From Squalus acanthias (taxonomy: Eukaryota): a DNA stretch of 64,000 nucleotides. A program made the position numbers and the translations under genes. This document shows positions 6,189-57,200 of this stretch, one piece after another (the first letter of the stretch is position 1; each line of letters begins with the position of its first letter). Where the stretch lies: NCBI GenBank assembly GCA_030390025.1, contig CM059438.1:20522001-20586000 (forward strand), given 5' to 3'. Below the pieces are notes generated by a model that worked only from the letters and a program-made list of their open reading frames with translations, ran no database searches and had not been told where the DNA came from.

Positions 6189-6258
6189 ATGGCATCCAAA
6201 GCAAGAGTTCTTTTACATGTCTTTCTCATTACTTTTACTTTCCATGTCAAGAGCTACG
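6189..6258 (+). CDS. Exon 1, signal peptide
   Basis: MASKARVLLHVFLITFTFHVKSY: basic N-terminus plus hydrophobic core. Donor G|gtaagc, phase 1, matching the downstream exons. Confidence 0.8.
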
Positions 6259-9200
6259 GTAAGCGAGGGAGTACTTGTTATTAATATGTTAAATGTCGCA
6301 TTGTTCAAAAGTGATACTGATAAATTACTATCTTAAATGATTGAATTGAAGGAAGGACAGTTCATGTCATTATGAGTTTGGTCATTTGAGCATGTTTAGC
6401 CTCTTAAAAAGTGATAAGTTAAAAGTGAAGAACAAAAAAATATATGGTTTCACACTTTGATTTGCATCAGTGTCGTCATGTTTTTGAGAGATAAAAGTAG
6501 AAATGACATAGAACTGAATAGTAAGAGTGAAGTGGAGAGTTCTGTGTTCAGGCTCTCAGTAAGAAAGCAGCTCTCCAGCTCTTTCGAATTCTCTTTTTAC
6601 GACATTAGAAGATCAAATTAACCAAGCTCTGCTGGCAGCACAAAAGCTGACTGGTGGTGAGCATGGTTCGTACAATCAGGCTCATGTGCCCAAATCACAG
6701 CAAACTCGATTTTCCAAGCTAGGACTTTGGGGTGAGCAAACGAGCCCACCTCAGGTATTTATAAACCTAATTTAAATTTAAATTTTATGTATATTCGGTC
6801 TCACGCAGATTTCACAAATTCCAGCAAGGCACCTCACCCATACAAAAAGGGATGACAACTGATAAATAGGTCTGGCCGACTTTTGAGTGCTTTTTAGAGA
6901 AAGTTTGGTGTTGTTTCAGTTGCTGTTGAAGTCTAGTTTTTTGGCAGTGAGCATTTATCTACTTATGCATTAAACATCCTGCACATTTTATTTCCTTCTG
7001 TATTTCTTCCTTTTTGCTGAAGCCTTCAGTTTGTTAAGCCATACTTTCCTAAATTCTTGCCAATTGCTGCTGAGTACAGTCCTTCTTCCTTCATCCTCAC
7101 TGTGTTGAACTCGAGGACTCCTTGCACATATTCTAATTCATTTTTCCCGGAACCTCAAAACTGTGGCACGCCTAATCTCCTTCAATATTTCCTTCCTTTT
7201 GCAATTTTTAGCATTTTATCACGCAAGCTTGGTAACAGTTGAATCATTACTTCCAGAGATGTTTTCCCTTCTACTCTTTCCAACACTGGCAGCATCCTGT
7301 ATTATAGACGTTGGTGGTTCACCTAGTTTTCACATGGTTAAACTGTGTGCCTTACATCATACAGGATATGGTTTGATGATGATTTAGTAATGATGGTAAG
7401 TATTTTTGTTGTCTGAGATGATTATCAGGCCTGCTCTCCCCGGGCCTGGCAATCATCCACCAACATCTCCGGGATCTTTGCGCGTGCGGTGTGGTGCCGG
7501 GGGTTTGTGCAGCTCCTCTTGCCCACTATCCATGACCCCGTGAACTTTAGCAGAGTCAGCGGCAGATTTCAGTGGTGGGGATGCAATCTCAGCGAAACTG
7601 CAGGATATCCCCTTCTTGAGGGATGTGCCGCCATTGTTTATTCCTTAATGCTTCTCAAAAGGATTATGCAAAGTTTCAGGCTTGAATAGTTATGGGAAAT
7701 ATTAATTATGGATTTGTTTTCATTATTTTGACTGGCTCTACTAGAGCAAATAGACCAACAGGTACTAAAAATGTCTTCAAATTAATGTTAAGTACCTTCC
7801 AGTCTGCCGATTGCATTTTCAGCATTGTTGGTGGGCACAACCCAAGTGGAACAGGCGGTTATCACCGCACCACGACATTTCCTGTTCACTTTTCTTTCTG
7901 TAATGCTGTTCAAAAAGATTGTGCGAAGTTTGAGGCCTGAACAGGTATCAAAAATATTCTGTTTAATAATGCATTTATTTTTTATTATTTTGACAGACAC
8001 TACTGAACCATCACCGGGTACAACAGGTACAGAAAATGTCCTGAAAAATATATTGATCCACATTAGAATGATAAAAGTTCATGACATTTATTTCAGAATT
8101 GAAATCTGCAAAATTGTTTGCAATAAAATGAATTTCAGATCTAACCTAACATTTACTGTATAACAGGATACGGCTCATGCAGATACAACTGTGGGGGATA
8201 TTCATCAGGTTGTTCCTGTGATTACGACTGTGCTTATTATGGCAGCTGTTGCTCTGACTTCTGTGACCACTGTTCTTACATGAATAACGGTAAGAGAACT
8301 TTCAAAAAATAAACTAATATTTAATTGTATTTTAAAGTTAAAACATAAAATGATAAAAAGACTGTCCGAATTACCAATGGGACTTTATTGAAGATTATTG
8401 CTCATATTGAGAATCAGTGTAGCTGAGTCCCGATGATGTGAAATGTTTTTCTGCAGTGTATAATGTAATCCATGAGATTATGGACAGCACCGACCTGACC
8501 TGCACTAATTCGAATGTTAACACAATTCAGTCTGAAATACAGTAACTCAGTTCAATCTTTAGGACATTTGTTTCAACTGCTTTGGAAAGTGTTTGTGTTG
8601 AGGTTAATTCCACAGATAAAGGAGAGAATACCAGTCAGTCCCAGGAGGTAAATGGAGGTCACATATTACTTGGAAAATAAGAATCTAAATTGGATTGTGG
8701 AGCAAAGGGATCTGGCAGTACAAATACACAAATCACTAAAAGTTATGACACACGTCAATAAGGTGTGACATAATGTTACATTCTGAAATATTTATAAAAA
8801 CAGAGCTTTTAAAAATGACCATTGCTGCAATATTTAAGATGATTAATTTTATTCATGTCAATATTCTGCAAAAGTGGGTAAAAGCAAATACATTGTATCT
8901 GGGCAATGGGCAGAGCCGGATTAAGATTCTTGGTGTCCTGGGCATCAAGAACAATCGGAAATCCTCTGCATGTGCCACACAAACCTTCCCTCGCCATCCC
9001 AGCCGATCCATTAAAACACATTTGTGTAGTCAAATAGATGAAAAATTAGGCCCATGGAATGTTTGCACACTGCATTAATAATAAAGCATATAATATTACA
9101 ATATACTACACTTAAATAGAATTACATAGAATATACAGCACAGAAAAAGGCCATTCGGCCCAATCAGTCCATGCCAGGGTTTATACTCCACTTGAGACTC

Positions 9201-12200: not shown

Positions 12201-15200
12201 GATATTGAGGCTTTGGAAAGGGGACAGAGGAGGGCCACAGATGAATTCCCAGTTTGAAGCATTTAGTTACTACGAAAAGCTCAAAGAGCTGGGACTCTAC
12301 ACTTCAGAGAAGCTTAGATTTAGGAGTGACTTGATTGAGGTTTATAAGATGATGAAGGGAATAGATTGTGTTTGTGTAATCTGTTTGTTTGAACTAAATA
12401 GGATAGGGAGGACCAGGGCTCACAATCTCAAGTTATGTGAAGGCAGAACTAGGATAGATGTTAGGAGCTAGTTCTTTTCCCAGAGAATTGCGGACCTGTG
12501 GAACAGGCTGCTGGCTCGAGCAGTGAACACTGATTCACTGAATTCCTTCAAACGAGAGTAAGTCCTGTTTCTGGCTGAGGTGGGTACCATATATCATTAA
12601 TCAGGGCCAGAGTAGTCTCCTGGACTCGTTTCGATTGGAGAGGAATTTTGCAGATTTCTTTCCCAAATTTGCCTGGGTTTTTATTCTCTTCACCCAAGAG
12701 ATGACATGGTTTCCGGCAGGGTGGGGTAGGTGTATATATTGTATGTTGTGTGTGACAGGCTGGCTGCACCAGTGGGCCTTTTCCTGTCCGTATGTTCGTA
12801 AATGTCAATCAGAGCTGATGTTAATAATTTCATTTAGTCATGTGTTATACCAATATTTCTATGAGTATGAATGAATGAGGATTGTTCAAAAAACACTTGT
12901 GAAAGCAAATAAACTGATTATGTTCCTCTATAGGATACTGCGGCGTTTATTCAACTGTACCAGGTCGGTAATATTTAAGTTAATTCTTTTTTTTAAATTT
13001 GTTGCTTTATACATTTGCTGACCCTTTATCAATCAACAATTAATCTTAATGGCTGTGCTCAGAGAATCACAGTATAGATTTGGTACAGTCTTTGTATGCT
13101 TCTGTCTAAAGCCTGCATATTATTCACATAGCTAAAGAGTGTGATCTACATTGTGCTATTTTGATGCTGTTTCATTACCATGTTAAGAAGCTCTTACATT
13201 CATATAATGTAATCTGTATTGTTGATTGGAGAATAAAATTCGAGTATTGCATATGAAGGCAAAATGTGAAATCAAACCAGCTACCAGAACGTTCAATTTG
13301 TTAGGTTCCAACACATTCTATCTTGAGCAGAACATGAATAATCTTTATATCATTTTGTGACTACAGACATTGTTGTATTTGATAAGAAATTGTTTTTCTC
13401 ATCGCATTAAATAGAAGAAAATGGCAAAGACTTCTCTTCTTTTAGGTATTTGTGTTGCTGTGTTCTGTCACTGATTGTCAAAATATCCACTGTGTAAACA
13501 CAGAATCATTCAGCTAGTGCAGAAAATGAAAATGAAATTTCCCAAATAACTGAGGAAAAAAATGTCATGTCATTGTATAATTTTCAAGCCCAGTTGAACA
13601 AATATATAATTTCTCCGGTAATTGTTGGTGATACAAGAATAATCACCAGTGCACCATGCCACAGTGTGAGGGGTTGTAGAGCAGTAAAAGAGAAAGGTTA
13701 AAGGGGACATTTTCTGCTTCTGTGGTTCCAGCGCGGAACATTTCCGGGGGCCTGGAGCGACAGCAGCCCAGAATATCTTTGTGAAACCCGGAGAGGCATT
13801 CCAGCTCTCCCCGGGCCTGGCAATCTTCCACCAACATCTCCGGGATCTTTGTGCGTGCGGTGTGGTGCTGGGGGTTTGTGCAGCTCCTCTTGCCCACTAT
13901 CCATGACCCCGTGAACTTTAGCAGAGTCAGCGGCAGATTTCAGTGGTGGGGATGCAATCTCAGCGAAACTGCAGGATATCCCCTTCTTGAGGAATGTGCC
14001 GCCATTGTTTATTCTTTAATGCTTCTCAAAAGGATTATGCAAAGTTTCAGGCTTGAATAGTTATGGGAAATATTAATTATGGATTTATTTTCATTATTTT
14101 GACTGGCACTACTAGAGCAAATAGACCAACAGGTACTAAAAATGTCTTCAAATTAATGTTAAGTACCTTCCAGTCTGCCGATTGCATTTTCAGTATTGTT
14201 GGTGGGCACAACCCAAGCGGAACAGGCGGTTATCACCGCACCACGTAATTTCCTGGTCACTTTTCTTTCTGTAATGCTGTTCAAGCCTCAAACTTCGTTG
14301 AATCTTTTGAACAGGTCTCAAAAATATTCTGTTTAATAATGCGTTTATTTTTATTATTTTGACAGGCCATACTGGACCATCAACGACAACAGGTACAGAA
14401 AATGTCCTGGAAAATATATTGATCCATATTAGAATGATTAAAGTTCATTACATTTATTTTAAAATTGTAATCTACAACTTTGTTTGCAATAAAATTAATT
14501 TCAGATCTAACCTAACATTTACTGTATAACAGGATATGGCTCATGCAGATACAACTGTGGGGGACATTCATCAGGTTGTATTCATGTATTGGCCAGTACC
14601 ACAGAGAATCTTTTCTGCAGCAAGATGTGTCTGGCATCCCTCCGTAGATCCTCTTCTTCTTCCAAACATGTCAGATAGGGGATTTCCTTTGAAGTTTTTT
14701 GGTAGCACTAATGGTGCTGGGGGAAAGGAGAAGTAATTTACAATAGGTGGCACAAAGGCGTATCAGACCCATTTTAAATGGGCATAATTAATGTTTTACA
14801 TCCTGTGGACCAGGACAGTGGGAGATGGTGTAGGATGAGCACATCCCCAAATTAATATTTAAATACGACGTTCACCATTTGGGAACTACATTTGACCATC
14901 TGTCAAAAGGAGGCGGTGGGACATCGCTCTCACCCTTTCTCAGGGTGGGGGAAACCAGCACTCACCTAGACCGACAATCTGCCACCAGCATTTGCAGCAT
15001 CTTTGGTGGCACAATCCAAGTGGAACGGGCAGTTATCACCGCACCACGAAATTTCCTGTTCACTTTTCTTTCTGTAATGCTGTTCAAAATGATTGTGCGA
15101 AGTTTGAGGCCTGAACAGGTATCAAAAATATTCTGTTTAATAATGCATTAATTTTTTATTATTTTGACAGACTCTACTGAAACATCACAGACATCAGGTA

Positions 15201-18200
15201 CAGAAAATGTCCTGAAAAATATATTGATCCACATTAGAATGATAAAAGTTCAAGACATTTATTTCAAAATTGTAATCTGCAACCTTGTTTGCAATAAAAT
15301 TAATTTCAGATCTAACCTAACATTTACTGTATAACAGGATACGGCTCTTGCAGATACAACTGTGGGGGATATTCGTCAGGTTGTTCCTGTGATTACAACT
15401 GTGCTTATTATGGCAACTGTTGCTCTGACTTCTGTGACCACTGTTCTTACATAAATAACGGTAAGAGAACTTACAGAAAATAAACTAATATTTAATTGTA
15501 TTTTAAAGTTAAAACATAAAATGATAAAAAGACTGTCAGAATTACCAATGGGACTTTATTGAAGATTATTACTCATATTGAGAATCAGTGTAGCTGAGTC
15601 CCGATGATGTGAAATGTTTTTCTGCAGTGTATAATGTAATCCATGAGATTATGGACAGCACCGACCTGACCTGCACTAATTCGAATGTTAACACAATTCA
15701 GTCTGAAATACAGTAACTCAGTTCAATCTTTAGGACATTTGTTTCAACTGCTTTGGAAAGTGTTTGTGTTGAGATTAATTCCACAGATAAAGGAAAGAAT
15801 ACCAGTCAGTCCCAGGAGGTAAATGGAGGTCACATATTACTTGGAAAATAAGAATCTAAATTGGATAGTGGAGCAAAGGGATCTGGCAGTACAAATACAC
15901 AAATCACTAAGGCTTTGGAAAGGGGACAGAGGAGGGCCACAGATGAATTCCCAGTTTGAAGCATTTAGTTTCTATGAAAAGCTCAAAGAACTGGGACTCT
16001 ACACTTCAGAGAAGCTTAGATTTAGGAGTGACTTGATTGAGGTTTATAAGATGATGAAGGGAATATATTGTGTTTGTGTAATCTGTTTGTTTGAACTAAA
16101 TAGGATAGGGAGGACCAGGGCTCACAATCTCAAGTTATGTGAAGGCAGAAGTAGGATAGATGTTAGGAGGTAGTTATTTTCCCAGAGAATTGCGGACCTG
16201 TGGAACAGGCTGCTGGTTCGAGCAGTGAACGCTGATTCACTGAATTCCTTCAAACGAGAGCAACTCCTGTTTCTGGCTGAGGTGGGGATCACTTCATACA
16301 AAAGGTGGGTACCATATATCATTAATCAGGGCCAGAGTAGTCTCCTGGACTAGTTTCGATTGGAGAGGAATTTTGCAGATTTCTTTCCCAAATTTGCCTG
16401 GGTTTTTATTCTCTTCGCCCAAGAGATGACATGGTTTCCGGCAGGGTGGGGTAGGTGTATATATTGTATGTTGTGTGTGACAGGCTGGCTGCACCAGTGG
16501 GCCTTTTCCTGTCCGTATGTTCGTAAATGTCAATCATAGCTGATGTTAATAATTTCATTTAGTCATGTGTTATACTAATATTTCTATGAGTCTGAATGAA
16601 TGAGGATTGTTCAAAAACACTTGATAAAGCAAATAAACTGATTATGTTCCTCTATAGGATACTGCGGCGTTTATTCAACTGTACCAGGTCGGTAATATTT
16701 AAGTTCATTCTTTTTTTTTAATTTGTTGCTTTGTACATTTGCTGACCCTTTATCAATCAACAATTAATCTTAATGGCTGTGCTCAGAGAATCACAGTATA
16801 GATTTGATAAAGTCTTTGTATGCTTCTGTCTAAAGCCTGCATATTATTCACATAGCTAAAGAGTGTGATCTACATTATGTTAAGAAGCTCTTACACTCTT
16901 ACATGCTAAAGGTATCAAGGGATATGGGGAGAAGGCAGGTACAGGGTACTGAGTTTGGATGATCAGCCATGATCTCATCGAATGGCGGAGCAGGCTCGAG
17001 GGGCCGAATGGCCTACTCCTGCTCCTATCTTCTATGTCTATGTTACCATGTTATAATGTAATCGGTATTGTTGATTGGAGATTAAAATTCTAGTATTGCA
17101 TATGAAGGCAAAATGTGAAATCAAACTAGGTACTAGAACGTTAAATTTGTTAGGTTCCAACACATTCTATCTTGATCAGAACATGAATAATCTTTATATA
17201 ATTTTGTGACTACAGACATTGTTGTATTTGATAAGAAATAGTTTTTCTCATCGCATTAAATAGAAGAAAATGGCAAAAACTTCTCTTCTTTTAGGTATTT
17301 GTGTTGCTGTGTTCTGTCACTGATTGTCAAAATATCCACTGTGTAAACACAGAATCATTCAGCTAGCGCGGAAAATGAAAATGAAATTTCCCAAATAACT
17401 GAAAAAAAAATGTCATGTCATTGTATAATTTTCAAGCCCAGTTGAACAAATATATAATTTCTCCGGTAATTATTGGTGATACAAGAATAATCACCAGTGC
17501 ACCATGCCACAGTGTGAGGGGTTGTAGAGCAGTAAAAGAGAAAGGTTAAAGGGGACATTTTCTGCTTCTGTGGTTCCAGCACGAAACATTTCCGGGGGCC
17601 TGGAGCGACAGCAGCCCAGAATATCTTTGTGAAACCCGGAGAGGCATTCCAGCTCTCCCCGGGCCTGGCAATCTTCCACCAAAATCTCCGGGATCTTTGA
17701 GTGTGCGGTGTGGTGCCGGGGGTTTGTGCAGCTCCTCTTGCCCACTATCCATGACCCCGTGAACTTTAGCAGAGTCAGCGGCAGATTTCAGTGGTGGGGA
17801 TGCAATCTCAGCGAAACTGCAGGATATCCCCTTCTTGAGGAATGTGCCGCCATTGTTTATTCTTTAATGCTTGTCAAAAGGATTATGCAAAGTTTCAGGC
17901 TTGAATAGTTATGGGAAATATTAATTATGGATTTGTTTTCATTATTTTCACTGGCACTACTGGAGCAAATAGACCAACAGGTACTAAAAATGTCTTCAAA
18001 TTAATGTTAAGTACCTTCCAGTCTGCCGATTGCATTTTCAGTATTGTTGGTGGGCACAATCCAAGCGGAACAGGTGGTTATCACCGCACCGCATAATTTC
18101 CTGGTCACTTTTCTTTCTGTAATGCTGTTGAAAAAGATTGAATGAAGTTTGAGGCTTGAACAGGTTTCAAAAATATTCTGTTTAATAATGCATTTATTTT

Positions 18201-21200
18201 TATTCTTTTGACAGACACTACTGAAACACCAATGACAACAGGTACAGATATGTCCTGGAAAATATATTGATCCACATTAGAATGATTAAAGTTCATTATA
18301 TTTATTTTAAAATTGTAATCTACAACCTTGTTAGCAATAAAATTAATTACCGATCTAAACTAACATTTACTGTATAACAGGATACGGCTCATGCAGATAC
18401 AACTGTGGGGGACATTCATCAGGTTGTTCCTGTAATTACAACTGTGCTTATTATGGCAACTGTTGTCAGGATTTCTGTGACCACTGTTCTTACATTAATA
18501 ACGGTAAGAGAACATTCAGAAAATAAACCAATATTTAAATGTATGTTAAAGTTAAAACATAAAATGTGTGTCAGAATTACCAATGGAACTTTATTGAAGA
18601 TTATTGCTCATATTGAGAAACAGTGTAGCTGAGTCCTAATGATGTGTAATGTTTTTCTGCAGTGTAGAGTGTGATCCCTGAGATTACTGTCAGCACCGAC
18701 ATCTCCTCTACTAATTTGAATGTTAACACAATTCAGTCTGAAATACAGTTACTCAGTTCAGTTACTGGTGTCGGTCTTTGGGACATTTGTTTCAACTTGT
18801 TGAGTTTGCTCCCATGCTTCACTTCTTTGGAAAGTGTTTGTGTTGAGGTTAATTCCACATTTAAAGGAGAGAATACCAGTGAGTCCCAGGAGGTAAATGG
18901 AGGTCACATATTACTTGGAAAATAAGAATCTAAATTGGATAGTGGAGCAAAGGGATCTGACAGTACAAATACTCTAATCACTAAAAGTTATGATGCAGAT
19001 CAGTTAGGTGTAGCATAATGTTACATTCTGAAATATTTACAAAAACAGAGCTTTTAAAAATGATCATTGCTGCAATATTTAAGATGATTAATTTTAATCA
19101 TGTCAATATTCTGTAAAAGTGGGTAAAAGCAAATACATTGGCCGCGATTTTGCCGGCGCTCAGAGGGCAGGTTTGGAGGCAGGTCTGAGGTTATAGTCGT
19201 TTTGATTGACGGCGGGTTCCAATCCTGCCATCAACCCGCCTTCAAACAGCTTTCCCAAGTGTTGGGTCACCGATTTGCAAATGGACCCGGCACCTAGCGG
19301 CGGGAAGAGGATTAAAGGCAATTACCTGCCTATTAGCAGGTACTTGCCAGTAGTTATCAGCCTGTTTTTGGATTTTCCCACTTCTGGGTCGGGTTCCCCA
19401 AAGTCGCGACACCACGCCAGGTAAGTGTGGTGTGTTGTGAGTCTGCTGTAATGTTTGTGGAATGATGACAGCTGCAGAACTGATGTGAAAGATCCAATGT
19501 TGCACATGGTGAGTTTCAGAGCAAAGAAAATGTCGGGTACTTCATTTTTAATACATTTACAGATTTCTTTAGCTTACAAGTTTTTAAATCCATGTCCAGT
19601 GCCACCTCATTTGAAGAACCCCTCTCACCAGTGACAGATCGCTTCTGTCACCTGACCTGCAGCTGCCATCTATTCCAGCCTATGGAGGGAGTCATTGGAG
19701 AGCCTGGGTGCAAGAGGCCACCTTTGTGCAGTGATTGTCATTGTTTTCAGCACCTCAATGCTGTCAAACACTGAGAAATCAATTGTCAAAATAAAATTGT
19801 GCGTGGTCCCTTTAAGGAAACCGGCAGATGACGCGTCAGCAAATGACGTCATCAGACCCGCTTCCTATTAATTGGCTGGTAAGTCCACAGGGCGAGCTTA
19901 ATAAGGTCAAGCAAGGCAAAATCACGTCTGTGGAGCGGAAGCAGCTGGGTGCCGTACCAGAACCTGGCAACCAGCTGTCCCAAACTTGACGCGCCTCCAT
20001 TAATAAAATCGTGGCCATTGTAACTGGGCAATGGGCAGAGCCGGATTAAGATTCTTCGTGTCCTGGGCATCAAGAACAATCAGAAACCCTCTGCATGTGC
20101 CACACAATACTTCCCTCGCCCTTCTAGCCGATCCGTTAAAGCACATTTGTGTAGTAAAATAGATGAAAAATTGGGCCCATAAAATGTTTGCACATTGCAT
20201 TAATAATAAAGCATAGAATATTACAATATACTACACTTACATAGAATTACATAGAATATACAGCACAATAAAAGGCCATTCAGCCCATCCAGTTGATGCC
20301 GGCGTTTATGCTCCACTTGAGACTCCACCCATCCTTCCTCATCTAACTCTATCAGCATAACCCTCTATTTCCTTCTCCCTCATATGCTTATAAAGCTTCC
20401 CCTTAAATGCATCTACACTATTTGCCTCAACCACTCCCTGTGGTAGCAAGTTCCACATTCTCACCACTCACTGGGTAAAGAAGTTACTTCTGAATTCCCT
20501 ATTTGATTTCTTGGTGACTATCTGATATTGATGGCCTCTAGATTTGCTCTTCCCCACAAGTGGAAACACTCTCTCTGTGTCTACTCTATCAAAACCTTTC
20601 ATGATTTTAAAGACCTCTATTAGGTCACCCCTCAGCCTTCTCTTTTCAAGAGAAAAGAGACCCAGCCTGTTCATCCTTTCCTGATAGGTATAACCTCGCA
20701 GTTCTGGTATCATCCTTGAAAATCTTTTTTGCACCCTCTCCAGTGCCTCCATATTCTTTTTATAATCTGGCAACCAGAACTGCACACAGCACTCCGAATG
20801 TGGTCTAACCAAGGTTCGATAAAAGTTTCGCATACTCTCTGTACATTTCAATTCTATCCCTCTAAAAATAAACCCTTGTGCTTGATTTGCTTCTGTTATG
20901 GCCTTATTAACCTGCGTCACAACTTCTAGTGATTTGTGTATTTGCACTCCCAGATCCCTTTCCTCCACTCCCCAATTTAGATTCTTATTTTCCATTTAAT
21001 ATGTGACCTCCCTTAAGCTGCACGGCCGCGCAGTTGTCTGGAGGTCCCACGCAGGCCGCTCACCGTCTTTTCAATGGGGCATTTCGCGCATGCGTTAAAT
21101 TTTAAATGGGCCGTGCAGTCCGTTAAAGGGACAGAGCATGCTCAAAAAAAATTAGGGGTAACATTGGTGACCTCCGTATTTTTTTTTTACTAAAGTGTAA

Positions 21201-45200: not shown

Positions 45201-48200
45201 ACGCAAATGCTGCCTGGTATAAGGAAGTTCAAATACAAAGAAAGAGTTAAAACTATTGGTTCTTTTTATATTAGAATAATGCAGAGTACAGGGTGATATG
45301 ATAGAAGTGTTTAAAAGGATGAAAGAGGGTAGATAGAAGCAGACTATTTCAACAGTTGAGGGGTCTGGAAGGAGGGACCACAGAAAAAGATGAAATGTGT
45401 GACATTTAGAACAGAGGGCAGGGGACACTTCCGAACACAGAGAGTTGTGAGGAGCTGCAATTCACTTCCAGGGTTAATGATTGAGGCAGTAACTATATCA
45501 ATATTCAACATTAGATTGAATAGGTGGAAAAGGGGTTGCAGGGATATTTCCTAAAGATTACATCAGGGCTGAGTTCTGAGTGAGGTCTGAGCACTTTTGT
45601 GCTTGCTTCAATATTTTCCTTCCAAAGATCTCTACATGACCTCCCATTTCATGAAAACTGTGACTTGTGATTGGGGACAGTTACGTACACACCAACCATT
45701 CTTCATGTGTGAGCCTGAACTGTTGGCTCCTCCACAATTCTTCTTCTTCTTAGGCAGTCCCTCGGAACCGAGGATGACTTGCTTCCACACTAAAAATGAG
45801 TTCTCAGGTGACTGATGAGTCCAATGCGGGACCTACAGTCACTGTCACAGGTGGGGCAGACGGTGGTTGAAGGGGCGGGTGGGTGGGGTGCTTGGGTTGA
45901 CGTGCGCTCCTTCTGCTGTTTGCGCTTCGCTTCCACTTGCTCCCGGCGAAGAGACTCAAGGTCTTCGACGCCTTCCCGGATGCTTCTCCTCCACTTTGTG
46001 CAGTCTTGGGCCAGGGATTCCCAGGTGTCGGTGGGGATGTTGCACTTTTTCAAGAAGGCTTTGAGGGTGTCCTTGAAGCGTTTCCTCTGCCCACCTGGGG
46101 CTCTCTTGGCGTGTTGGAGCTCCGAGTAGAGCGCTTGTTTTGGGAGTCTCGTATCGGGCATGTGGACGATGTGGCCCGTCCATCGGAGCTGATCAAGCAT
46201 GGTCAAAGCTTCGATGCTGGGGTTGTTGGTCTGAGCGAGAACACTGACGTTGGTGCACCTATCCTGCCAATGGATTTGCAGGATCTTGCGGAGGCAGCGT
46301 TGGTGGTACCTCTCCAGTACTTTGAGGTGCCTGCTGTACATGGTCCATGTCTCTGAAGCATAGAGGAGGATGGGTATCTCAGAGATGCCGTAATCGTGAC
46401 CATCTTCAAGAAAGATGACAAGTCCGATTGCGGTAATTACAGAGGAGTCTCCCTGCTGTCTGCCACAGGGAAAGTCATCGCAAGAATCCTCCTCAATTGC
46501 CTTCTCCCAGTGGCTGAAGAGCTCCTCCCAGAGTCGCAATGCAGATTCTGCCCACGAAGGGGCACAATGGACATGATCTTCACCGCACGTCAACTACAAG
46601 AGAAATGCAGGGAACAGCACCAACCGCTGTACATGGCCTTCTTTGACCTCACAAAGGCCTCGAGACCGCCAACCGTGAGGGATTATGGAGTGTCCTCCTC
46701 AAATTCGGTTGCCCTCAAAAGTTTGTCACCATCCTCCGCCTGCTTCCTCCACAATAGGGCCATTATAGTCAACAGTTTGACATAATTGAGCAATGAAAAT
46801 TTAACAATAATGGGGGCAGATTAAATACCCAAACCAAATGCTAGTAATGTTGCAAATGTTAGTAGGAGAATTGTCTTTGAAATTCTGTTTAAAATACAGA
46901 AGTCTAATGGTCTGTACAAAAGTAACAAAAGGAAACAAGTCATTGAAGAATAGGCACAGTGGACTGGATTTGATTAGAAGTGTCACACTGCTGCAGAATT
47001 TCAGTTATTCCATTGTCCAATATTATCATGCACACCTAATAATCACAAAGTTCACCGTTTTATGAACGAGGGCAAAAATTCCAAACATTGATATTTAGAA
47101 CACGTTCTGCAACCAGCCTCCCAAAATCAAATTCTTATGTAACTTGTATTGTTGATTGATACATATATGGGTAGGGGGGAAAGAAAGGAAATGGTTGTTC
47201 TTTTGCCATGTATTGCCCCACCTGAACTTATCCATGTCCTTACTGTTAATAGGTGGATCTTGTGGAGGGTATCTTGAAGGTTCCCATGGGTCTGTCAGCA
47301 GTCCAGGTTATCCATACTCTTATCCAAATAATGCACGGTGCACTTGGTACATAAGAGTGGACAGAAATCAAACAATAAAGCTGGAATTTACTAACATTAG
47401 GTAGGTAAAAATGTTTTCACTTTCATATTTTAATGTAAATAATGGCAGGAGTATTTGGTGTCAATTAACTATTGCTGATAGATTCACTTAAATTACAACA
47501 AGGGGGTGGACCAATAATTTGATGTTGAGTGCCAGAAGTGCTGGGCTAGGATCACATTATTGGCCCCTCGGCGCATCCTTTTAAACTGAAATATACCCAC
47601 AGCAAGACAGCAAGGAGGTAGTCTCCATTTTGTCTACAAAAAACAGTATTATAGAAATCTGTGATGTCAGTTTACACAAGAAAAACCACCCAGAGCTAAC
47701 TGATGCATCAGATGATCTTTCTCTGGCCGGCTGATACCCAGCTGAATCGAGATCAGCATGCTTCCTGATCCCAGATGCCGATTCTGCCACCTGATCACAA
47801 CTCAAATCTTCAGTATCAGTCAAGGTTCAAAAATCAATCCATGTTCAGCTTTTGAGTTTTGTTTTTCATCCAGAGTCGACATTCAGTTAAGAAACGCAGC
47901 TCACTGCCCAGCTAAATGATCTTCAACTGGTGATGGACAGGAAGATTAACATTTATTGGTTTAATATGTAATCCTGTAAAGTCAAAACAGTAAAGAGTTT
48001 CAACATAATGCCTGATTCAGTCTCCACACCAATTCTTCCTACTTCATTGAATCTTTGAGTGACCTTTCCAGGGTGAAACGGGGAAATGGTTGGGAGCAAT
48101 GACCAATGTTTTTGGACGTCAAAACAGAGGTGACAATTAGTCTTGGGTCGGTTAACCATCACAATATTTAATGAGCATTCTTTCCTAAATGTGTTCCCAG

Positions 48201-51200
48201 AAACTACAGTCATTTTAGAGATTTTTCAGAAGTCACTTTCTTACTACAGAATTTTCCACCAGTCCCTCTCATGTTAGATTGTGGAGAAATTGCAAATTAT
48301 TCCAATCTCGCTATTTCTAACATTCTTACACTGGTTATATAACATTCAAGGTCATTAAAATCTGTGACGCTTTCAGTGTATTCTTGCGATAACTTCAATG
48401 GAAGTCCATTAGAAGGGACAAAATTAAGATCAGGACTCGCCACATCAGGACTTCTTGTTTTTCCAGTCCTCAGAGGAACCCGGTATCGATGAGACCTGCA
48501 TACCTCGATGAACCGGTGGAAATGGGGCCTAACTGGGGTCCAGCCTGGGATTGTGGGCTGGACCCCTGAAGGAAAAAATATTTTTTGAAGGAATTATTTC
48601 AAAGCAGTCCCTTAGGAGCCAGAGAAGAATGGCAGGACTTATGCTGGGAATTTCCTCAGGGTCTCCCAATTTGCTGCCATAACTGTGATTGAAAACTGTT
48701 TGCTCGGTCCTCCCGATGTTCCTGCATATCTTCTGCTGAAGTTACAGGAATTCCTCGCATTAATTCTTAAGTTATGAAGACAACTCACAGAATCAAACTA
48801 GGACTTACTCGAGAAAATATCAAAGGGGCACAATTCAGGATGTAAGGAAGCTATTTAATTTGAATTGGGAGCAAAAATGCTGAGGAAATGTGTTAAAAAT
48901 TATTATATATGGGAAGAAAGCATCCAGGGCTGACCAATGGAAGTTGAAACTAGATAGATATTCAAGTATATGCTTGCTAATCTTGAAAAGTTGGGAGAGA
49001 AATTTTACAAGTAAATTTGTTAGAGTATGTGCTAAGGCAAATTATGCTACATCGGTTGAAAGAATGGTGGATGGATTGAGTAGCCTATACTTGTCCAATA
49101 TTTTCTCATGTTCTTTGTTTAGGTCCTGAAATGCCTTCTAATGGTGCTTATACATGCAGACATATTTATAATTGTCTGATTTATTAACTAAGTTGCTAAA
49201 AGAAATGGATTACGGTGAAATTAATTTTCAAACTATGCTCATTTTCTTGACAGCCTGGAAGTTTCATCAACTTGCTCGTATGATTATATTGCAATATACA
49301 ATGGGCCTTCAACATATTATCCTTTGCTTTCAAAAATCTGTAATGGAACAAATCAGACATTTACATCATCGTCCAACAGTATGACAATATTTTTTAGCAC
49401 TGATCACAGTGTAACTAGACGTGGATTTACTGCAAACTACTACTCTCTGCCAATCAATGATGGTGAGCTTTGTTACACTTCTTGTCTCAAAATTGCAATG
49501 TACTTTAAACTAGAAGAATTGTAGAGAAATTAGGAATGGATGCATTTTTCACATTTAAATTGCTATTAAAAAGGCCGTATCATTATGTTTCACTACAAAT
49601 GTAGCCAAAAAGTTTAAGGAAGATTCCACGCCCCCCCCGCCCCCCGCCCCCCGATATTCAGTTCCACTGACTTCAATGGAACAGAATATCAGGCGGGGCC
49701 TTTAACAAGCAGCCCATGTGATACCATCCATTTTGCGATATCCCAAAGGTGAATTCATAACCCACAGTCTCTGCCAACACTACACTTACAGGCTGCTGTG
49801 AGTTGTGGGGAAGACTCCCAGAGTGACCCTCATTCTGATTTTCCATCCTTTCAAGTTGATGCAAATGGTGCCCTCTGCTCTGTGCTTCCCCTGGACTCAG
49901 CACCTCCTCACAGATCCCAGCTGTGAATTAGTGCCATCCTGGGCAGAAATCTCTGGGCACAAAGTGCTTTATGGAGTGAGGAAATATGACATCACGTGGA
50001 ACAGTGAACAACAGATTTTTGGTTCATAGCGAAACATAAGAATTGAATTTATGAGGTCTGTGTAATTTGGCAGCATTGAACTTTAGACCCTGGTCACAGA
50101 GGATGAGCTAAGATGCAGCGAATATAGTGATCCACTTTAGAATGATAAAAGTAGTTCATATTTATCTCAAGATTGTAATCTGCAACTTTGTTTGCAATAA
50201 AAATAATTTCAGCTCTAACCTAACATTTACTGTATAACAGGATACGGCTCATGCAGATACAACTGTGGGGGACATTCATCAGGTTGTTCCTGTGATTACA
50301 ACTGTGCTTATTATGGCAACTGTTGTCAGGATTTCTGTGACCACTGTTCTTACATAAATAACGGTAAGAGAACTTTCAGAAAATAAACCAATATTCAAAT
50401 GTATGTTAAAGTTAAAAAATCAAGTCAAAAGTCTATCAGAATTATCAATGGGACTTTATTGAAGATTATCACTCATATTGAGAATCAGTGTGGCTCAGTC
50501 CTGATGATGTGAGATATTTTTCTGCAGTATATAATGTGATCCATGAGATTATTGTCAGGACTGATTTGTCCTGTACGCCTTCAAATGTTAAAACCGGGTC
50601 AGTCTGAAAAACAGTAACTCAGTTTAGTTACTGGTGTCCGGCCTTTGGGACATTTCCTTCAACTTATTGAGTTTGTTCTCATGCTTCACTGCTTTGGATA
50701 GTGTTTGTGGTGAGATTAATTCCAGTAAGAAAGCAGAGATCACCAGTGAATGGCAGGAGGTAAACGCTGACAGTTTCATGCAACATTGCGCAGGGTTGCG
50801 GCATAATGTTATAGTCTGAAATATTTACGAAAACTGAACTTTTATAAATGATCATCACTGTAATATTTAAGAGTTTTAAATTTATTCATGTCAAAGTTCT
50901 GCAAAAGAGGATAACAGCAAATACATTGTACCTGGGCAATATCTGTTCTTTAGATTTTTTAATCAAAAGGCTAAATACTTTTTATATGAGCACCATTTTT
51001 CAGCATTTTAAAAGCTGAAAATGGAAAGTATAGCGGTTGTGGAAATATTTTTTATTGTATTATACTTGGAGAACAGAGCCGATGTTCATGAATCAAACCG
51101 AAGGAACCGAAAACTCAATTCTGACTGAACGATAACAGCAGAGTTTGTCCTGCTGACATATGGAATAAACTGCCACCTCGTTAACTGAAAGTAGACTCAG

Positions 51201-54200
51201 TAGAAGTTTTCAAAACTGAACTGGACAGATTACTGACTTAACAGGGAGTAGAGGGACACAGGCTTGAGATTAAGCAAGGAAGGAGATGCAACTTGTCCAA
51301 GACAGAAATGATAGATGTGGACGATTCCCTCAATTGCTACTTGTTCGTGATGTCATAAACTTGATGGAAAGATTTCCAATGTTTGCAATTTGTAGTAAAA
51401 TTGTAACAACTTTCCAAAAGATGTTTATTATTCTGCCAGGAATTGCAATCAAAGGAATTCTTACATTATATATGCAATGTCGCTAATACATAACCAGGGA
51501 AAATCTATCCCTAAACTGAGCTAGATTAACACAAAAGCCTTTTCATATTGACACCATTTTGTGTTCCTCAACAAATAACTTAATACATGATGAAGCCTAG
51601 ATGGAAATGTCAATCATAGTTGATATTAATAATGTCAAACATAGTTATATTAATTTTATTTTCAATATATATTAAATTAATGTTTCTATGAGTATGAATG
51701 TAATACGATTGTTTAAAAACACCGGGCAAAGCAAAATAATTGTGTTTCTCTACAGGATACTGCGGCACGACTACCCCTACTGAAGGTGAGTAATATTTTT
51801 ACACTAAATGTAACGCCTTTCTTCGTGCTTTCGATAAATGCTCCTAGTGGACAAGACTCTGAGAGTGCAGAAGGGAAAGTTCAACCTTTTACCAAAAGTT
51901 TCCAAGTGAGGAAACATAATACTGATGCTCTTGGCAAGGAATCGCTCTGCCTTTCTCCATTTGGTTCTTTCCCAATGTGCCTCTTGGATCTTGTAGTATC
52001 TGGACTCCACTAAGACCTCTGTTCCGGCCGGTATCCCTATCCTCATCCTTAAGATATGTGCCTCTGAGCTTACACCTGTCCTTTGCTACATTTTCAGTCT
52101 CAGTTATTCTGATTCTATGTTTTCCTTTGCTCAGTGATATGCTTCGTTTATGTCGTCCCTAATGAAGTTGACTGCTCTTATTGCTGCAATGACTGTGCTA
52201 TTGCCTTTACACTGAGAATTATCAGTGACACAAGAGTAATCGCCAGTGCACCATAGCACTGTGCGTGAGGTTGTGGAGCAGCAAAAAAGAAGAATTAAAG
52301 AGTAAATATTCTGCCTCTGTGGTCCCTGCATAGACGATTTGCATGTCAGTAAATTGCATGAGCAATCCCCGATTTCCGAAAGTGGGGCAGGACTCGGGCC
52401 TGATAGTGCAGATGGGAAACTTTACACCAACATTTTAAAGTTCGTAAAAGTAACATTAGTGCTCTTGGGAAAAACTATGCTCCATTTCTTCATTTGGTTC
52501 CCTGATGATGATCAGTATTAAGTTTTATTCGCACCATGGCTCTCAGATCCTCCAATCTCTGAACACCACTAAGGCCTTTAGATTAGAATATCTATTGGCA
52601 GGCTTTAAACAGACTCAACTGAAATTGTGCTATTTGAACCTAATTTCTCTACATCAGCATATTAGCATCAGTTAAAGTGCAGATTTGGACTGGTATTAGG
52701 AGCGCACCATGGATGGGAACAGGAAGTTGCTTGTAAGTAAAGTTTAAAGGGGTGGGGACAATTAAAGGAGAGTGTCATGATAGGGGGACAGCAATTCTGT
52801 AACCATTTGGAGAGTCACAGAAGGCCTCTCAATGTACAGGTACATTGCTCTGTTAATGCTTTATTCCAATGAAAACCAAAAATATTTGTGATTTGCTGTC
52901 GTTTGCACTGGGTCACCTGGGCACAGTGAATATCAGAAGACTATGCAGATTCCTTTACGGTCGTGCACTCGGACCCACCAGATGTTCTGATATTCGGTGT
53001 GCTCAGGCAATCCTGTGCATCTAGCCGCAGGCCCAGGAAGAGGTCTCCTACACATCTTGTTATGACATTATTGACTAAAAATAATTTCAGCTGTAACCTA
53101 ATATTACTGTATAACAGGATACGGCTCATGCAGATACAACTGTGGGGGACATTCATCAGGTTGTTCCTGTGATTACAACTGTGCTTATAATGGCAGCTGT
53201 TGCCATGACTTCTGTGACTACTGTTCTTACATCAATAACGGTAAGAGAACTCTTAAAACTGAAAATGGTACGTAGATGCTTGTGAAAGTTAAATAATGAA
53301 ATGATAAAACACCTTCCACATTCAGAAAAACATTTTATTATAGACTAGTAGATCACCCATAGTGTGGCATACTCGGGGTTGAGGGCATGGTTTGGGGAGA
53401 GGAGCAAGCAGGTGAGGGATGCAGCTTGAAGACAAGAGCAAAGTGTTGGCACAGGGAATCCAACACCGTGTCAGGGAACAGAACTGGTGCACAAAGTGTA
53501 AGAAAAGGGCCAAGTTGAAGGAGTGATGGACTGGGATTGGTTTCCTGTTATCTGGCAACTGGGAATGGAGAAGTCTGGAACCTGAGGCAAATTGATCTTT
53601 CAATGGTATTTTTAATTTTGGCGACTGCGTAAAATGGGCGATATCGGATCGTCCGCCCATTATACACAGATTGGGTGTATAATGGGCAGCTGTGAATGTT
53701 AAAATTACTCCAATGGGTCTGAGGCTGAGGGCAGAGACAGTCTGGGGCGGAGGTCAGGAGCAGTGGCATTCCTGAGGCTGAGGCCAGCAGTAGAGGCGTT
53801 CCTGAGATTGATGCCAAGACTGAAGATGCTCCTGAGGTCAGTGTCAGCAGCCAAGGTGTTGCTTGGGTCGAAGTAATGAGCAAAGGTATTCCTGGGGTAG
53901 ATGTCAGAGATGAAGGCACTCCTGGAGTCAAGGCCTGGATTTAAGGTGTTCCTGGAGTCGATGTCAGCATTTTCGATATTCCTGGGTCGAGGTCAGGAGT
54001 TAAGGTGTTCCTGTGGTCGAGGTCAGGAGTTAAGGTGTTCCTGGGGTCGAGGTCAGGAGTTAAGTTGTTCCTGGGGTCGATGTTTGGAGCAAAGGTGTTC
54101 CTGGGGTTGATGTCACCAGTTAAGGAGTTTCTGGGGATGAAGTCAGGAGCAAAGTTCCTGGGGTCAGCATCAGGATGGAAGGTATTCCTGAGGTTGAGGG

Positions 54201-57200
54201 CAGGAGCAATGGCATTCATTCCTGATATTGACCCTAGGAACACCATCGCTTCTGCCCTCAACCCCAGGAATACCTTCATTCCTGATATTGAACCTAGGAA
54301 GTTATTCCTGGGGTCGAGGGCAGAAGTGATGGTATTCCTGATGTCAGTATCAGGAGTGAAGATGTTCCTGGGGTTGATGTCAGTTGTGATGATGTTCCTG
54401 ATGTCAGTATCAGGAGTGAAGATGTTCCTGGGGTTGATGTCACCAGTTAAGGAGTTCCTGGGGTCGAAGTCAGGAGCAAAGCTGTTCCTGGGGTCAATAT
54501 CAGGAGTGAAGGTATTCCTGGGATCGAGGGCAGCAGCGATGGTGTTCCTGGGGTCAATTTCAGGAGTGAAGATGTTCCTGGCATTGACGTCAGGAGTGAA
54601 GATGTTCCTGGGGTTGAAGCCAGGAATAAAGATGTTGCTGGGGTGGAGTTCAGGAGCGAATGAGATCCTCCGATGAACTGAAATGGACAGAGAATCAGAA
54701 GCTGTGCACACCTGAATTTCAGCTGCTGCACAAGCCTCCCTGTCGGTAGCACAAGTTGGAAAAATTACCTCAAATTCTTGGTTTAGTCAGATTAATGTTA
54801 ATATGGATCTGAGTATAAATGAGGTACTTTCAAAATATCTGATATACTAACTTACTGCTTCCAATTATTTTATTTGCAGATCACTGTTATCTTACTGCAA
54901 GCCCTACTGGTAAGTAAAATTTGAATATATTTGCTGTTGAGTATATTGGTGCCCGTGTGAGTAGGTATGAAAACTTTCAATGTTGTTGACTTCCAGAATC
55001 TACATAGATAGAACTGAGAATGAATAATTGAATGGTATTTATTATTGATTAAATTTTTATATCCCTAAATTATATCCTTATATTAGGTGGAGAAAGCAGA
55101 GCTCAGTAATAAGACCTCAGTTAGAGTACCTTGTACCACCCCCCCTTGACATTCATTGGTATTACCATCGCCAAATCCCCCACCATGAACATCCTGGGGG
55201 TCGCCACTAACCAGAAACTCAACTGGACCAGCCATATAAATGCCATGGCTACAAGAGTAAGTCAGAGGCTGGGTATTCTGCGGCGAGTGTCTCACCTCCT
55301 GACTCCCCACTGCCTCTCCACCATCTACAAGGCACAAATCAGGAGTGTGATGGAACACTCTCCACTTGCCTGGATGGGTGCAGCTCCAACAACACTCAAG
55401 AAGCTCGACATCATCCAGGACAAAGCAGCTGGCTTGATTGGCAGCCCATCCTTCACTTTAAACATTCACTCCCTCCACCACCAGTGCACCATAGCTGCAG
55501 TGTGTACCATGCACAGGATGCACTGCAGCAACTCGCCAAGGCTTCTTTGACAGCACCTCAGAAACCCGCAACCTCCACCACTTAGAAGGACAAGGGCAGC
55601 AAGCGCATGGGAATATCATCACCTCCAAGTTCCCCTCCAAGTCACACATCATCCTCACTTGGACATATATCGCCATTCCTCCATCATCACTGGGTCAAAA
55701 TCCTGGAACTCCCTACTTAACAGTATTGTGGGAGTACCTTCACCAAATGGACTGCAGCAGTTCAATTATGGGCTCACCACCACCTTCTCGAGGGCAATTA
55801 GGGATGGCCAATAAATGCTGGCATTGCTAGCGATGCCCATATCCTGAGAATGAATTACAGAATATATCAGGTTCCACACTACAGCAAAATACTCAGGCTT
55901 TCGAGAGGGTACAAGTCAGATTCACTCAAATACTGCCTGGTATAAGGAAGTTCAAATACAAAGAAAGAGTTAAAACTATTGTGTCTTTTTATATTAGAAT
56001 AATGCAGATTACAGGGTGATATGATAGAAGTGTTTAAAAGGATGAAAGAGGGTAGATAGAAGCAGACTATTTCAACAGTTGAGGGGTCTGGAAGGAGGGA
56101 CCAGAGAAAAAGATGAAATGTGTGACATTTAGAACAGAGGGCAGGGGACACTTCCGAACACAGAGAGTTGTGAGGAGCTGCAATTCACTTCCAGGGTTAG
56201 TGATTGAGGCAGAAACTATATCAATATTCAACATTAGATTGAATAGGTAGAAAAGGGGTTGCAGGGATATGGGAACAGGATGGGTAAATGTGAATGGAAC
56301 TATTTACTTGAGTGGTGGGTAAATATTGACACAGACTTATTGGGGTCAATGGCCTGTTTCCATGATGTAATTCTATGTTTCGTATCTGTTATCTTATACC
56401 TGTCAAAAATATTTGTATTGCCCCACCTGAACTTATCCATTTCCTTACTGTTAATAGGTGGATCTTGTGGAGGGTATCTTGAAGGTGCCTACGGGTCTGT
56501 TAGCAGTCCAGGTTATCCATACTCCTATCCAAATAATGCACGGTGCACTTGGTACATAAGAGTGGACAGAAATCAAAGAATAAAGCTGGAATTTACTAAC
56601 ATTAGGTAGGTAAAAATGTTTCCTCTTTCATATTTTAATGTAAATAATGGCAGGAGTATTTGGTGTCAATTAACTATTGCTGATAGATTCACTTAAATTA
56701 CAACAAGGTGGGGGGACCAATAATTTGATGTTGAGTGCCAGAAGTGCTGGGCTAGGATCACATTATTGGCCCCTCGGCGCATCCTTTTAAACTGAAATAT
56801 ACCCACAGCAAGACAGCAAGGAGGTATTCTCCATTTTGTCTACAAAAAACAGTATTATAGAAATCTGTGATGTCAGTTTACACAAAACACCACCCAGAGC
56901 TAACTGATGCATCTGATGATCTTTCTCTGGCCGGCTGATACCCAGCTGAATCGAGATCAGCATGCTTCCTGATCCCAGATGCCGATTCTGCCACCTGATC
57001 ACAACTCAAATCTTCAGTATCAGTCAAGGTTCAAAAATCAATCCATGTTGAGCTCTTGAGTTTTGTTTTTCATCCAGAGTCGACATTCAGTTAAGAAACG
57101 CAGCTCACTGCCCAGCTAAATGATCTTCAACTGGTGATGGACAGGAAGATTAACAGTTATTGGTTTAATATGTAATCCTGTAAAGTCAAAACAGTAAAGA

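Follow-up and report, generated by a model that had tools for sequence, protein, structure and literature searches.

A somatomedin B (SMB) domain with eight cysteines in four disulfides is described for a modelled protein in PMC6891707. We investigated a stretch of 64,000 nucleotides (nt) from Squalus acanthias (G000:C14:20522001-20586000; hereafter, the window) that holds most of one plus-strand CUZD1/DMBT1-like gene, which would encode a surface protein with CUB domains and a zona pellucida (ZP) module. Its intact SMB exons each encode one cysteine too many, and each is followed by a very short exon that encodes one more. In our reading, each repeat is a ten-cysteine SMB domain, with the last cysteine supplied by the spliced-in micro-exon.

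SMB exons and their cysteine micro-exons

All eight intact SMB exons encode nine cysteines. In every case a GT..AG intron of 1197-4970 nt leads to a phase-1 exon of 27-30 nt with one cysteine, always at residue 3 (GYC in six, DHC in two). The original prediction, made from the sequence alone, had described this arrangement, with the two parts 1.2-5 kb apart and the cysteine in the same register, and it holds for eight of eight pairs. Some details needed correction. Seven SMB exons have the stated length of 123 nt, while the one at 29112-29228 has 117 nt; the motif DFCDHC is present in most, while two copies read DFCDYC; and beside the eight intact copies there is a ninth at 14533, cut after about 47 nt. 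The exons are listed below with the evidence for each, where X2-X5 are four sequencing runs and P0001 is a protein of another shark.

8167..8289, +, SMB exon 1, nine cysteines (sequence)
12934..12963, +, cysteine micro-exon GYCGVYSTVP, same as the 16658 exon (loose end behind SMB exons in contigs; copy not resolvable)
14533..14579, +, truncated SMB exon of ~47 nt, reduced to the acceptor and its first ~15 codons (sequence, tblastn)
15338..15460, +, SMB exon 2, nine cysteines (PF01033, E 1.7e-4)
16658..16687, +, cysteine micro-exon GYCGVYSTVP (GT..AG joint from SMB exon in X3, X5)
18381..18503, +, SMB exon 3, nine cysteines (sequence)
23474..23503, +, predicted cysteine micro-exon GYCSAYSTPS (same peptide in P0001)
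29112..29228, +, SMB exon 4, 117 nt, nine cysteines (sequence, Pfam)
30629..30655, +, predicted cysteine micro-exon GYCGVTTTM, 27 nt (sequence)
39525..39647, +, SMB exon 5, nine cysteines (sequence)
41040..41069, +, cysteine micro-exon GYCGTTTPTE, same as the 51756 exon (sequence)
42402..42524, +, SMB exon 6 (DFCDYC), nine cysteines (sequence, Pfam)
44167..44196, +, cysteine micro-exon DHCYLTASPT, same as the 54880 exon (sequence)
50241..50363, +, SMB exon 7, nine cysteines (sequence, contigs)
51756..51785, +, cysteine micro-exon GYCGTTTPTE (GT..AG joints: 5' side X2, X3, X4; 3' side X3, X4)
53118..53240, +, SMB exon 8 (DFCDYC), nine cysteines (sequence, contigs)
54880..54909, +, cysteine micro-exon DHCYLTASPT (GT..AG joint from SMB exon, CUB sequence behind; X2, X4, X5)

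The eight pairs are not independent, given duplication and only five distinct micro-exon sequences; the last two SMB-SMB-CUB blocks (38906-45547 and 49623-56270) are a recent 6.7 kb duplication with 95.7% identity. A crude scan of open AG..GT candidates of 24-30 nt found a cysteine at residue 3 in 12 of 73, a count that includes the real exons and their alternative lengths and is itself no clean control. A chance origin of the micro-exons is excluded by the spliced contigs and the conservation in other fishes described below. Frame neutrality does not set them apart, since SMB and linker exons in this array are frame-neutral too. One 31-nt AG..GT candidate near 7365 was rejected, as it shifts the frame and contains an in-frame stop.

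The flanks of the DHC exons are indeed unlike those of the GYC exons: local scores between them are 18-33, within the range of the shuffle maxima (22-34), as against 81-380 among GYC copies. Independent convergence of the DHC exon on the cysteine position did not survive comparison with P0001, whose last repeat before CUB reads GHCNLTAKPT, identical to DHCYLTASPT at 7 of 10 residues. This peptide occupies the matching position ahead of the final CUB domain, so that the DHC exon is, on sequence comparison, an old diverged copy and no independent invention.

Micro-exons also begin with G-x-C in register with the short SMB exons (GSC at 29112), and a catshark micro-exon itself reads GSC. The cysteine micro-exon may be a relic of the 5' end of an SMB exon; no flank similarity between the two was found in the window.

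Splicing of the micro-exons

We mapped contigs from the four runs, which come from two studies, on positions 50200-55000. The run type is a guess, and we took the runs as RNA because the contigs carry spliced joints and leave the introns near-empty; cover falls on the exons, with next to none in the introns. GT..AG joints were observed from SMB 50363 to GYC 51756 (X2, X3, X4), from GYC 51785 to SMB 53118 (X3, X4) and from SMB 53240 to DHC 54880 (X2, X4, X5), the last with CUB sequence behind the DHC exon. Loose ends behind an SMB exon carry the sequence of the GYCGVYSTVP exon in X2, X3 and X5. A separate mapping, dominated by mobile repeats and with 15 of its 138 joints listed, gave a further joint from 15460 to 16658 (X3, X5); the first coding exon was uncovered there, which speaks neither for nor against it.

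Over 50200-55000, all 12 exits listed from the 3' end of an SMB exon (seven joint contigs and five loose ends, with one loose-end row outside the listing) enter a cysteine micro-exon, and none of the 12 skips it, in contigs that drop rare forms. Of the five different micro-exon sequences, three are therefore seen spliced, with identical copies indistinguishable, in agreement with the expectation that the micro-exons are part of the mRNA; the exons at 23474 and 30629 are not among them. Regulated micro-exons give both inclusion and skipping junctions, and the listed contigs show inclusion only. Upstream, the linker exon at 15171 is preceded in contigs by another linker-type end, which fits skipping of the SMB stub at 14533.

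A 30-nt tandem array within the introns (43015-43947, 53731-54656) has an internal inverted segment and open frames of 240-280 amino acids on both strands. We rejected it as a mucin exon, as it lies within a skipped intron and has almost no contig cover.

Ten-cysteine repeats in other fishes

Three word-based sequence searches and one cluster look-up gave 179 related proteins, in which 727 SMB repeats were matched by pattern; 8 without Cys8 in place were left out, giving 719. We scored the extra cysteines by their positions behind the CC pair (+4, +15), not counting a +15 cysteine that opens the next domain, and assigned organism groups from source names. Both extra cysteines are present in 159 repeats, neither in 541, only +4 in 19, and only +15 in none. 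Sharks and a ray have 117 ten-cysteine and 5 nine-cysteine repeats, sturgeons and paddlefish 26 and 11, and gar and bowfin 16 and 3, with 8 eight-cysteine repeats besides. In teleosts, all 533 repeats (98 proteins) have eight cysteines and run directly into the linker. The ten-cysteine pattern, which the original prediction suggested seeking in other vertebrates, is thus found among these proteins in sharks, ray, sturgeons, paddlefish, bowfin and gar. The bowfin repeats are of the ten-cysteine type; gar has both types within one protein, and one gar core of the ten-cysteine type shares 87% identity with an eight-cysteine core from a teleost.

The tenth cysteine is stable across the named isoform sets. 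It is present in every repeat of the isoform sets from catshark (isoforms X1-X7), the P0001 species (isoforms X1, X2, X4, X5) and sterlet (isoforms X1, X2), and the named isoforms differ in the number of whole repeats or linkers with all ten cysteines retained. Among the cluster members examined, 113 of 125 repeats have ten cysteines, 5 have eight and 7 have nine, the last in two single GenBank models.

The loop from Cys8 to the tenth cysteine has 7 residues in all 159 ten-cysteine repeats, with the consensus S/P-Y-hydrophobic-N/D-x-G-Y. In 42 distinct ten-cysteine tails, the first Y is conserved in 33, N/D in 37, G in 35 and the final Y in 38. The Ser/Thr/Pro fraction of the loop is 0.17, versus 0.59 at the same positions of 390 eight-cysteine tails. 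Models P0047, P0119, P0148 and P0150 break at the same residue, which suggests that the exon split is also present in sturgeon and gar. Among jawed fishes the ten-cysteine form is probably an old one, and both cysteines were likely lost together in the eight-cysteine type that gar also carries and that became fixed in teleosts (e.g., cod and perch).

A probable fifth disulfide

Alignment to solved SMB structures identifies the extra cysteine as that of DFC and the next cysteine as canonical Cys8. We ran AlphaFold2 on the catshark relative P0138 with a 61-sequence alignment; the output consisted of confidence and secondary structure only. Both repeats were modelled with a block predicted local distance difference test (pLDDT) score of 74-85, in the first over residues 31-70. 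In repeat 1 the tenth cysteine is residue 70 and pLDDT is below 50 from residue 73, and in repeat 2 the corresponding positions are 132 and 134. The model thus treats the micro-exon cysteine as part of the folded unit, with confidence dropping only two to three residues beyond it.

In a secreted domain, an even number of cysteines usually indicates full pairing. Since both extra cysteines occur together or not at all, apart from the nine-cysteine models discussed below, we consider it probable, well beyond an even chance, that they form a fifth intradomain disulfide. This bond would join the cysteine of DFC to that of GYC or DHC and would clamp the short C-terminal loop onto an unchanged SMB core. 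Inclusion of the micro-exon would be constitutive in all tissues, and the repeats would likely be stiffer or more protease-resistant, standing on the glycosylated linkers of what would be a ZP-polymerising epithelial-surface protein. The idea of a role in epithelium or gut comes by analogy from zebrafish cuzd1: cuzd1.1 is listed among intestine-specific genes in PMC9600436 and is raised with goblet-cell excess in PMC8959185. Orthology of the shark gene to zebrafish cuzd1.1/1.2 or mammalian CUZD1 is putative, going by the database names of its matches.

The fifth disulfide had been proposed in the original prediction, and covariation, the fixed and conserved 7-residue loop and the AlphaFold2 confidence through the micro-exon cysteine now argue for it. 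Several points weigh on the other side. The bond is inferred, as no disulfide was seen, and a shallow AlphaFold2 run (5 sequences) was uninformative, with a pLDDT of 40. Covariation cannot separate pairing of DFC with GYC/DHC from a reshuffled five-bond topology. Its phylogenetic basis is also narrow: a tree of 428 distinct cores, weak at 31 columns and built without the +4 column, needs three state changes, the covariation reflects about 1-3 evolutionary events, and the repeat counts overstate independence. The species pattern itself may be a single joint loss. Finally, 19 repeats in nine models (P0005-P0009, P0047, P0119, P0148, P0150) have the +4 cysteine only. At the SMB exon border these models stop, run on or jump away, and for two species fuller models contain the tenth cysteine (P0156 versus P0005; P0141 and P0144 versus P0119); P0007-P0009 are short models with a fuller paralog, P0157, that has it. 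For P0007-P0009, P0047, P0148 and P0150, the missing cysteine is likely a model error.

Alternative readings

The repeats could also contain five intradomain disulfides with the pairing reshuffled, for example with the DFC cysteine bound to a canonical partner and Cys8 to the micro-exon cysteine. Covariation speaks for a joint need and is silent on partners, the extra cysteine is only three residues from canonical Cys8, and the SMB disulfide topology is reportedly debated for vitronectin. However, the eight-cysteine core is interchangeable between eight- and ten-cysteine repeats, as the 87% identity shows, and it aligns ungapped to the solved SMB domain of SUSD2, which fits a bond added to an unchanged core; we regard reshuffling as unlikely, although it is the least unlikely of the alternatives. 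The same short spacing produces a CxxC motif from the extra cysteine and Cys8 (CDHC, CDYC, CNYC), which might be a thiol-exchange or metal site with the tenth cysteine resolving. CDHC is similar to the CGHC motif found in disulfide isomerases, and AlphaFold2 puts a short helix at these residues, but the inner residues vary freely (H in 17, Y in 16 and Q in 6 of 42), the second cysteine is a canonical structural one of the SMB domain, and no thioredoxin-like match was found in Pfam or PDB searches. We consider a CxxC site the least likely explanation of all.

Two further alternatives place the cysteines in contacts between chains or repeats. The original prediction proposed a splice switch, by which a micro-exon skipped under regulation would expose a free thiol, and this thiol would cross-link chains. 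Skipping would keep the reading frame, the donors of four micro-exons depart from the consensus (GTCGGT, GTCAGT), the tenth cysteine is missing from the 19 database repeats discussed above, and contigs could have dropped rare forms, with the exons at 23474 and 30629 absent from the joints seen. Nonetheless, none of the 12 listed exits skips a micro-exon, the three isoform sets retain the tenth cysteine in every repeat, and the 7 nine-cysteine repeats of the cluster, set against 113 of 125 with ten, all come from two single GenBank models. The switch is unsupported by these data and is, in our estimate, quite unlikely, second among the alternatives. The same small probability applies to regulated skipping in some tissue or state, with the free thiols linking ZP filaments into a mesh like that of mucus, a trait then lost in teleosts; if true, micro-exon splicing would set the cross-link density of the ZP mesh. 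Alternatively, both extra cysteines could always be present and bond neighbouring repeats or chains, with ZP filaments cross-linked as in gel-forming mucins. The protein is predicted to polymerise because its ZP module is most like that of uromodulin (best Foldseek match, E 5.4e-17; the CUB domains were matched too), and a cross-linking cysteine pair would also covary. But linker length varies widely while the spacing within the repeat is fixed, and the single-repeat proteins P0143 and P0157 retain both cysteines, which makes such links very unlikely.

Comparison with known SMB proteins

All eight exons have the SMB cysteine spacing C-x3-C...C-x-C-x3-C-x5-CC-x6-C, in line with the alignment to 2cqw, 9ftw and 2jq8. 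Pfam PF01033 matched three single exons at 21.2-22.3 bits (E 1.7e-4 to 3.7e-4), compared to a gathering score of 23.1 bits, and full-length relatives carry a precomputed PF01033 label. The eight canonical cysteines are shared column by column with known SMB domains (SUSD2, 2cqw; ENDOU, 9ftw; vitronectin, 1oc0/2jq8; ENPP1/2), and the closest solved chain is the SMB domain of SUSD2, with an ungapped match at E 4.6e-6. Unlike these, the shark repeat has two extra cysteines (+4 and +15 after the CC pair) and the conserved 7-residue loop, and its C-terminal end lies on a separate exon of 24-30 nt. We filed the repeat as a variant of the SMB domain because each spliced repeat has ten cysteines, not exactly eight in four disulfides. 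The +4 cysteine was not found in the SMB stretches of the three solved-structure alignments. Asp22 and Tyr28 of vitronectin are given as binding residues in PMC8417595, and the matching positions are mostly retained in our alignment.

The SMB, Thr/Ser/Pro linker, CUB and ZP layout is the same in fish cuzd1 and "DMBT1-like" proteins, and most top matches of the relatives search carry PF01033, PF00431 and PF00100. Mammalian CUZD1 and DMBT1 share CUB followed by ZP, the basic cleavage site and the membrane anchor, and uromodulin shares the ZP part; the tetrapod matches listed have no SMB domain. An atlas search returned one SMB cluster at 0.84, which we note as a lead only.

We found no description of a ten-cysteine SMB domain in the literature searched, a scope outside which lay supplements (e.g., the DNase1L5 SMB alignment of PMC9208542) and most subscription journals. 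It is a real, likely old and apparently undescribed variant of the SMB domain, with the sequences themselves already in public annotation. As a ten-cysteine subtype of a textbook eight-cysteine domain, it extends the domain boundary onto a micro-exon, and gar, with both forms on near-identical scaffolds, provides a natural pair for studying disulfide gain or loss and SMB topology. A fault that recurs in annotation is accounted for as well: models without the micro-exon show a false free thiol. On present evidence, it brings no new regulatory mechanism.

Gene layout and neighbouring features

The gene opens with a signal-peptide-like exon, followed by an array of phase-1 exons (8 intact and 1 truncated SMB, 8 cysteine micro-exons and several Thr/Ser/Pro micro-exons). 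The gene also has three two-exon CUB domains and ZP exons, with the last ZP exon and the membrane anchor beyond the window. The domain order is SMB x4, CUB, SMB x2, CUB, SMB x2, CUB, ZP, the Pfam names being SMB (PF01033), CUB (PF00431) and ZP (PF00100). The remaining features are as follows.

6189..6258, +, first coding exon, signal-peptide-like (MASKARVLLHVFLITFTF...), phase-1 donor (sequence; resembles the N-termini of P0002/P0005)
7997..8026, +, predicted Thr/Pro linker micro-exon (sequence; the pattern scan ended at an earlier GT, 8017)
14366..14392, +, predicted Thr/Pro linker micro-exon (pattern scan)
15171..15197, +, Thr/Ser linker micro-exon (pattern scan; sequence precedes SMB exon in X2, X5 contigs)
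18215..18241, +, Thr/Pro linker micro-exon (pattern scan; after GYC exon end in X5 contig)
24689..24712, +, predicted Thr/Pro linker micro-exon (pattern scan)
33741..33764, +, predicted Thr/Pro linker micro-exon (pattern scan)
35619..37828, +, CUB domain 1, two exons, 35619-35766 and 37620-37828 (sequence, tblastn)
47253..49462, +, CUB domain 2, two exons, 47253-47400 and 49254-49462 (sequence, tblastn)
56458..60845, +, CUB domain 3, two exons, 56458-56605 and 60637-60845 (Pfam PF00431)
61953..63566, +, ZP module exons, 61953-62128 and 63178-63566 (Pfam PF00100, tblastn)
L015:162-434 and 1232-1396, just past the window, +, last ZP exon with RQKR site and membrane-anchor exon (sequence)

The encoded proteins have shark proteins as their closest matches, and the CUZD1-like set of signal peptide, CUB domains, ZP-N/ZP-C, basic cleavage site and membrane anchor is present, the signal peptide and anchor being assigned from sequence and homologs. 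A tblastn search with three SRCR-bearing proteins matched only SMB, CUB and ZP exons, and no SRCR domain was found in the window; for this reason the gene is not DMBT1 by architecture. Judged by domain layout and the database names of its matches, it is CUZD1-like. In one shark, P0007-P0009 and P0157 join an SRCR fragment to this type of SMB repeat, and the short ones end without the tenth cysteine; they may be genuine short forms or fragments of annotation.

The third CUB domain (60637-60845) reads TCSCDY versus TCSYDY in the other two copies, with one extra, apparently unpaired cysteine. In relatives, this loop has 1 cysteine (67) or 3 (72), never 2, among 139 matched. A genuine free thiol, an allelic difference or an error in the sequence might each account for the extra cysteine.

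Two linker-type micro-exons (7735-7761 and 14106-14132) have a TG acceptor in place of AG and are probably dead, and at 28944-28970 a remnant of another, with the 3' end and donor only, lies directly behind a mobile repeat. Decayed open frames in introns (45790-46785, 44411-44827, 55125-55550, 20468-20995, 28295-28735) are presumably fragments of LINE-type reverse transcriptase. On the minus strand, 135-911 is a 258-amino-acid open frame containing a 54-nt triple repeat, with a similar piece at L017:1520-1855; we take one stretch of it to be Myb/SANT-like, as in Harbinger-type transposons. Finally, a decayed partial copy of the gene lies ~240 kb away (L017:8039-9309 and L018:2637-2762; G000:C14 about 20.823-20.828 Mb, minus strand); it retains one nine-cysteine SMB exon, a GYCGVSIM micro-exon of 24 nt and a ZP exon interrupted by stops.

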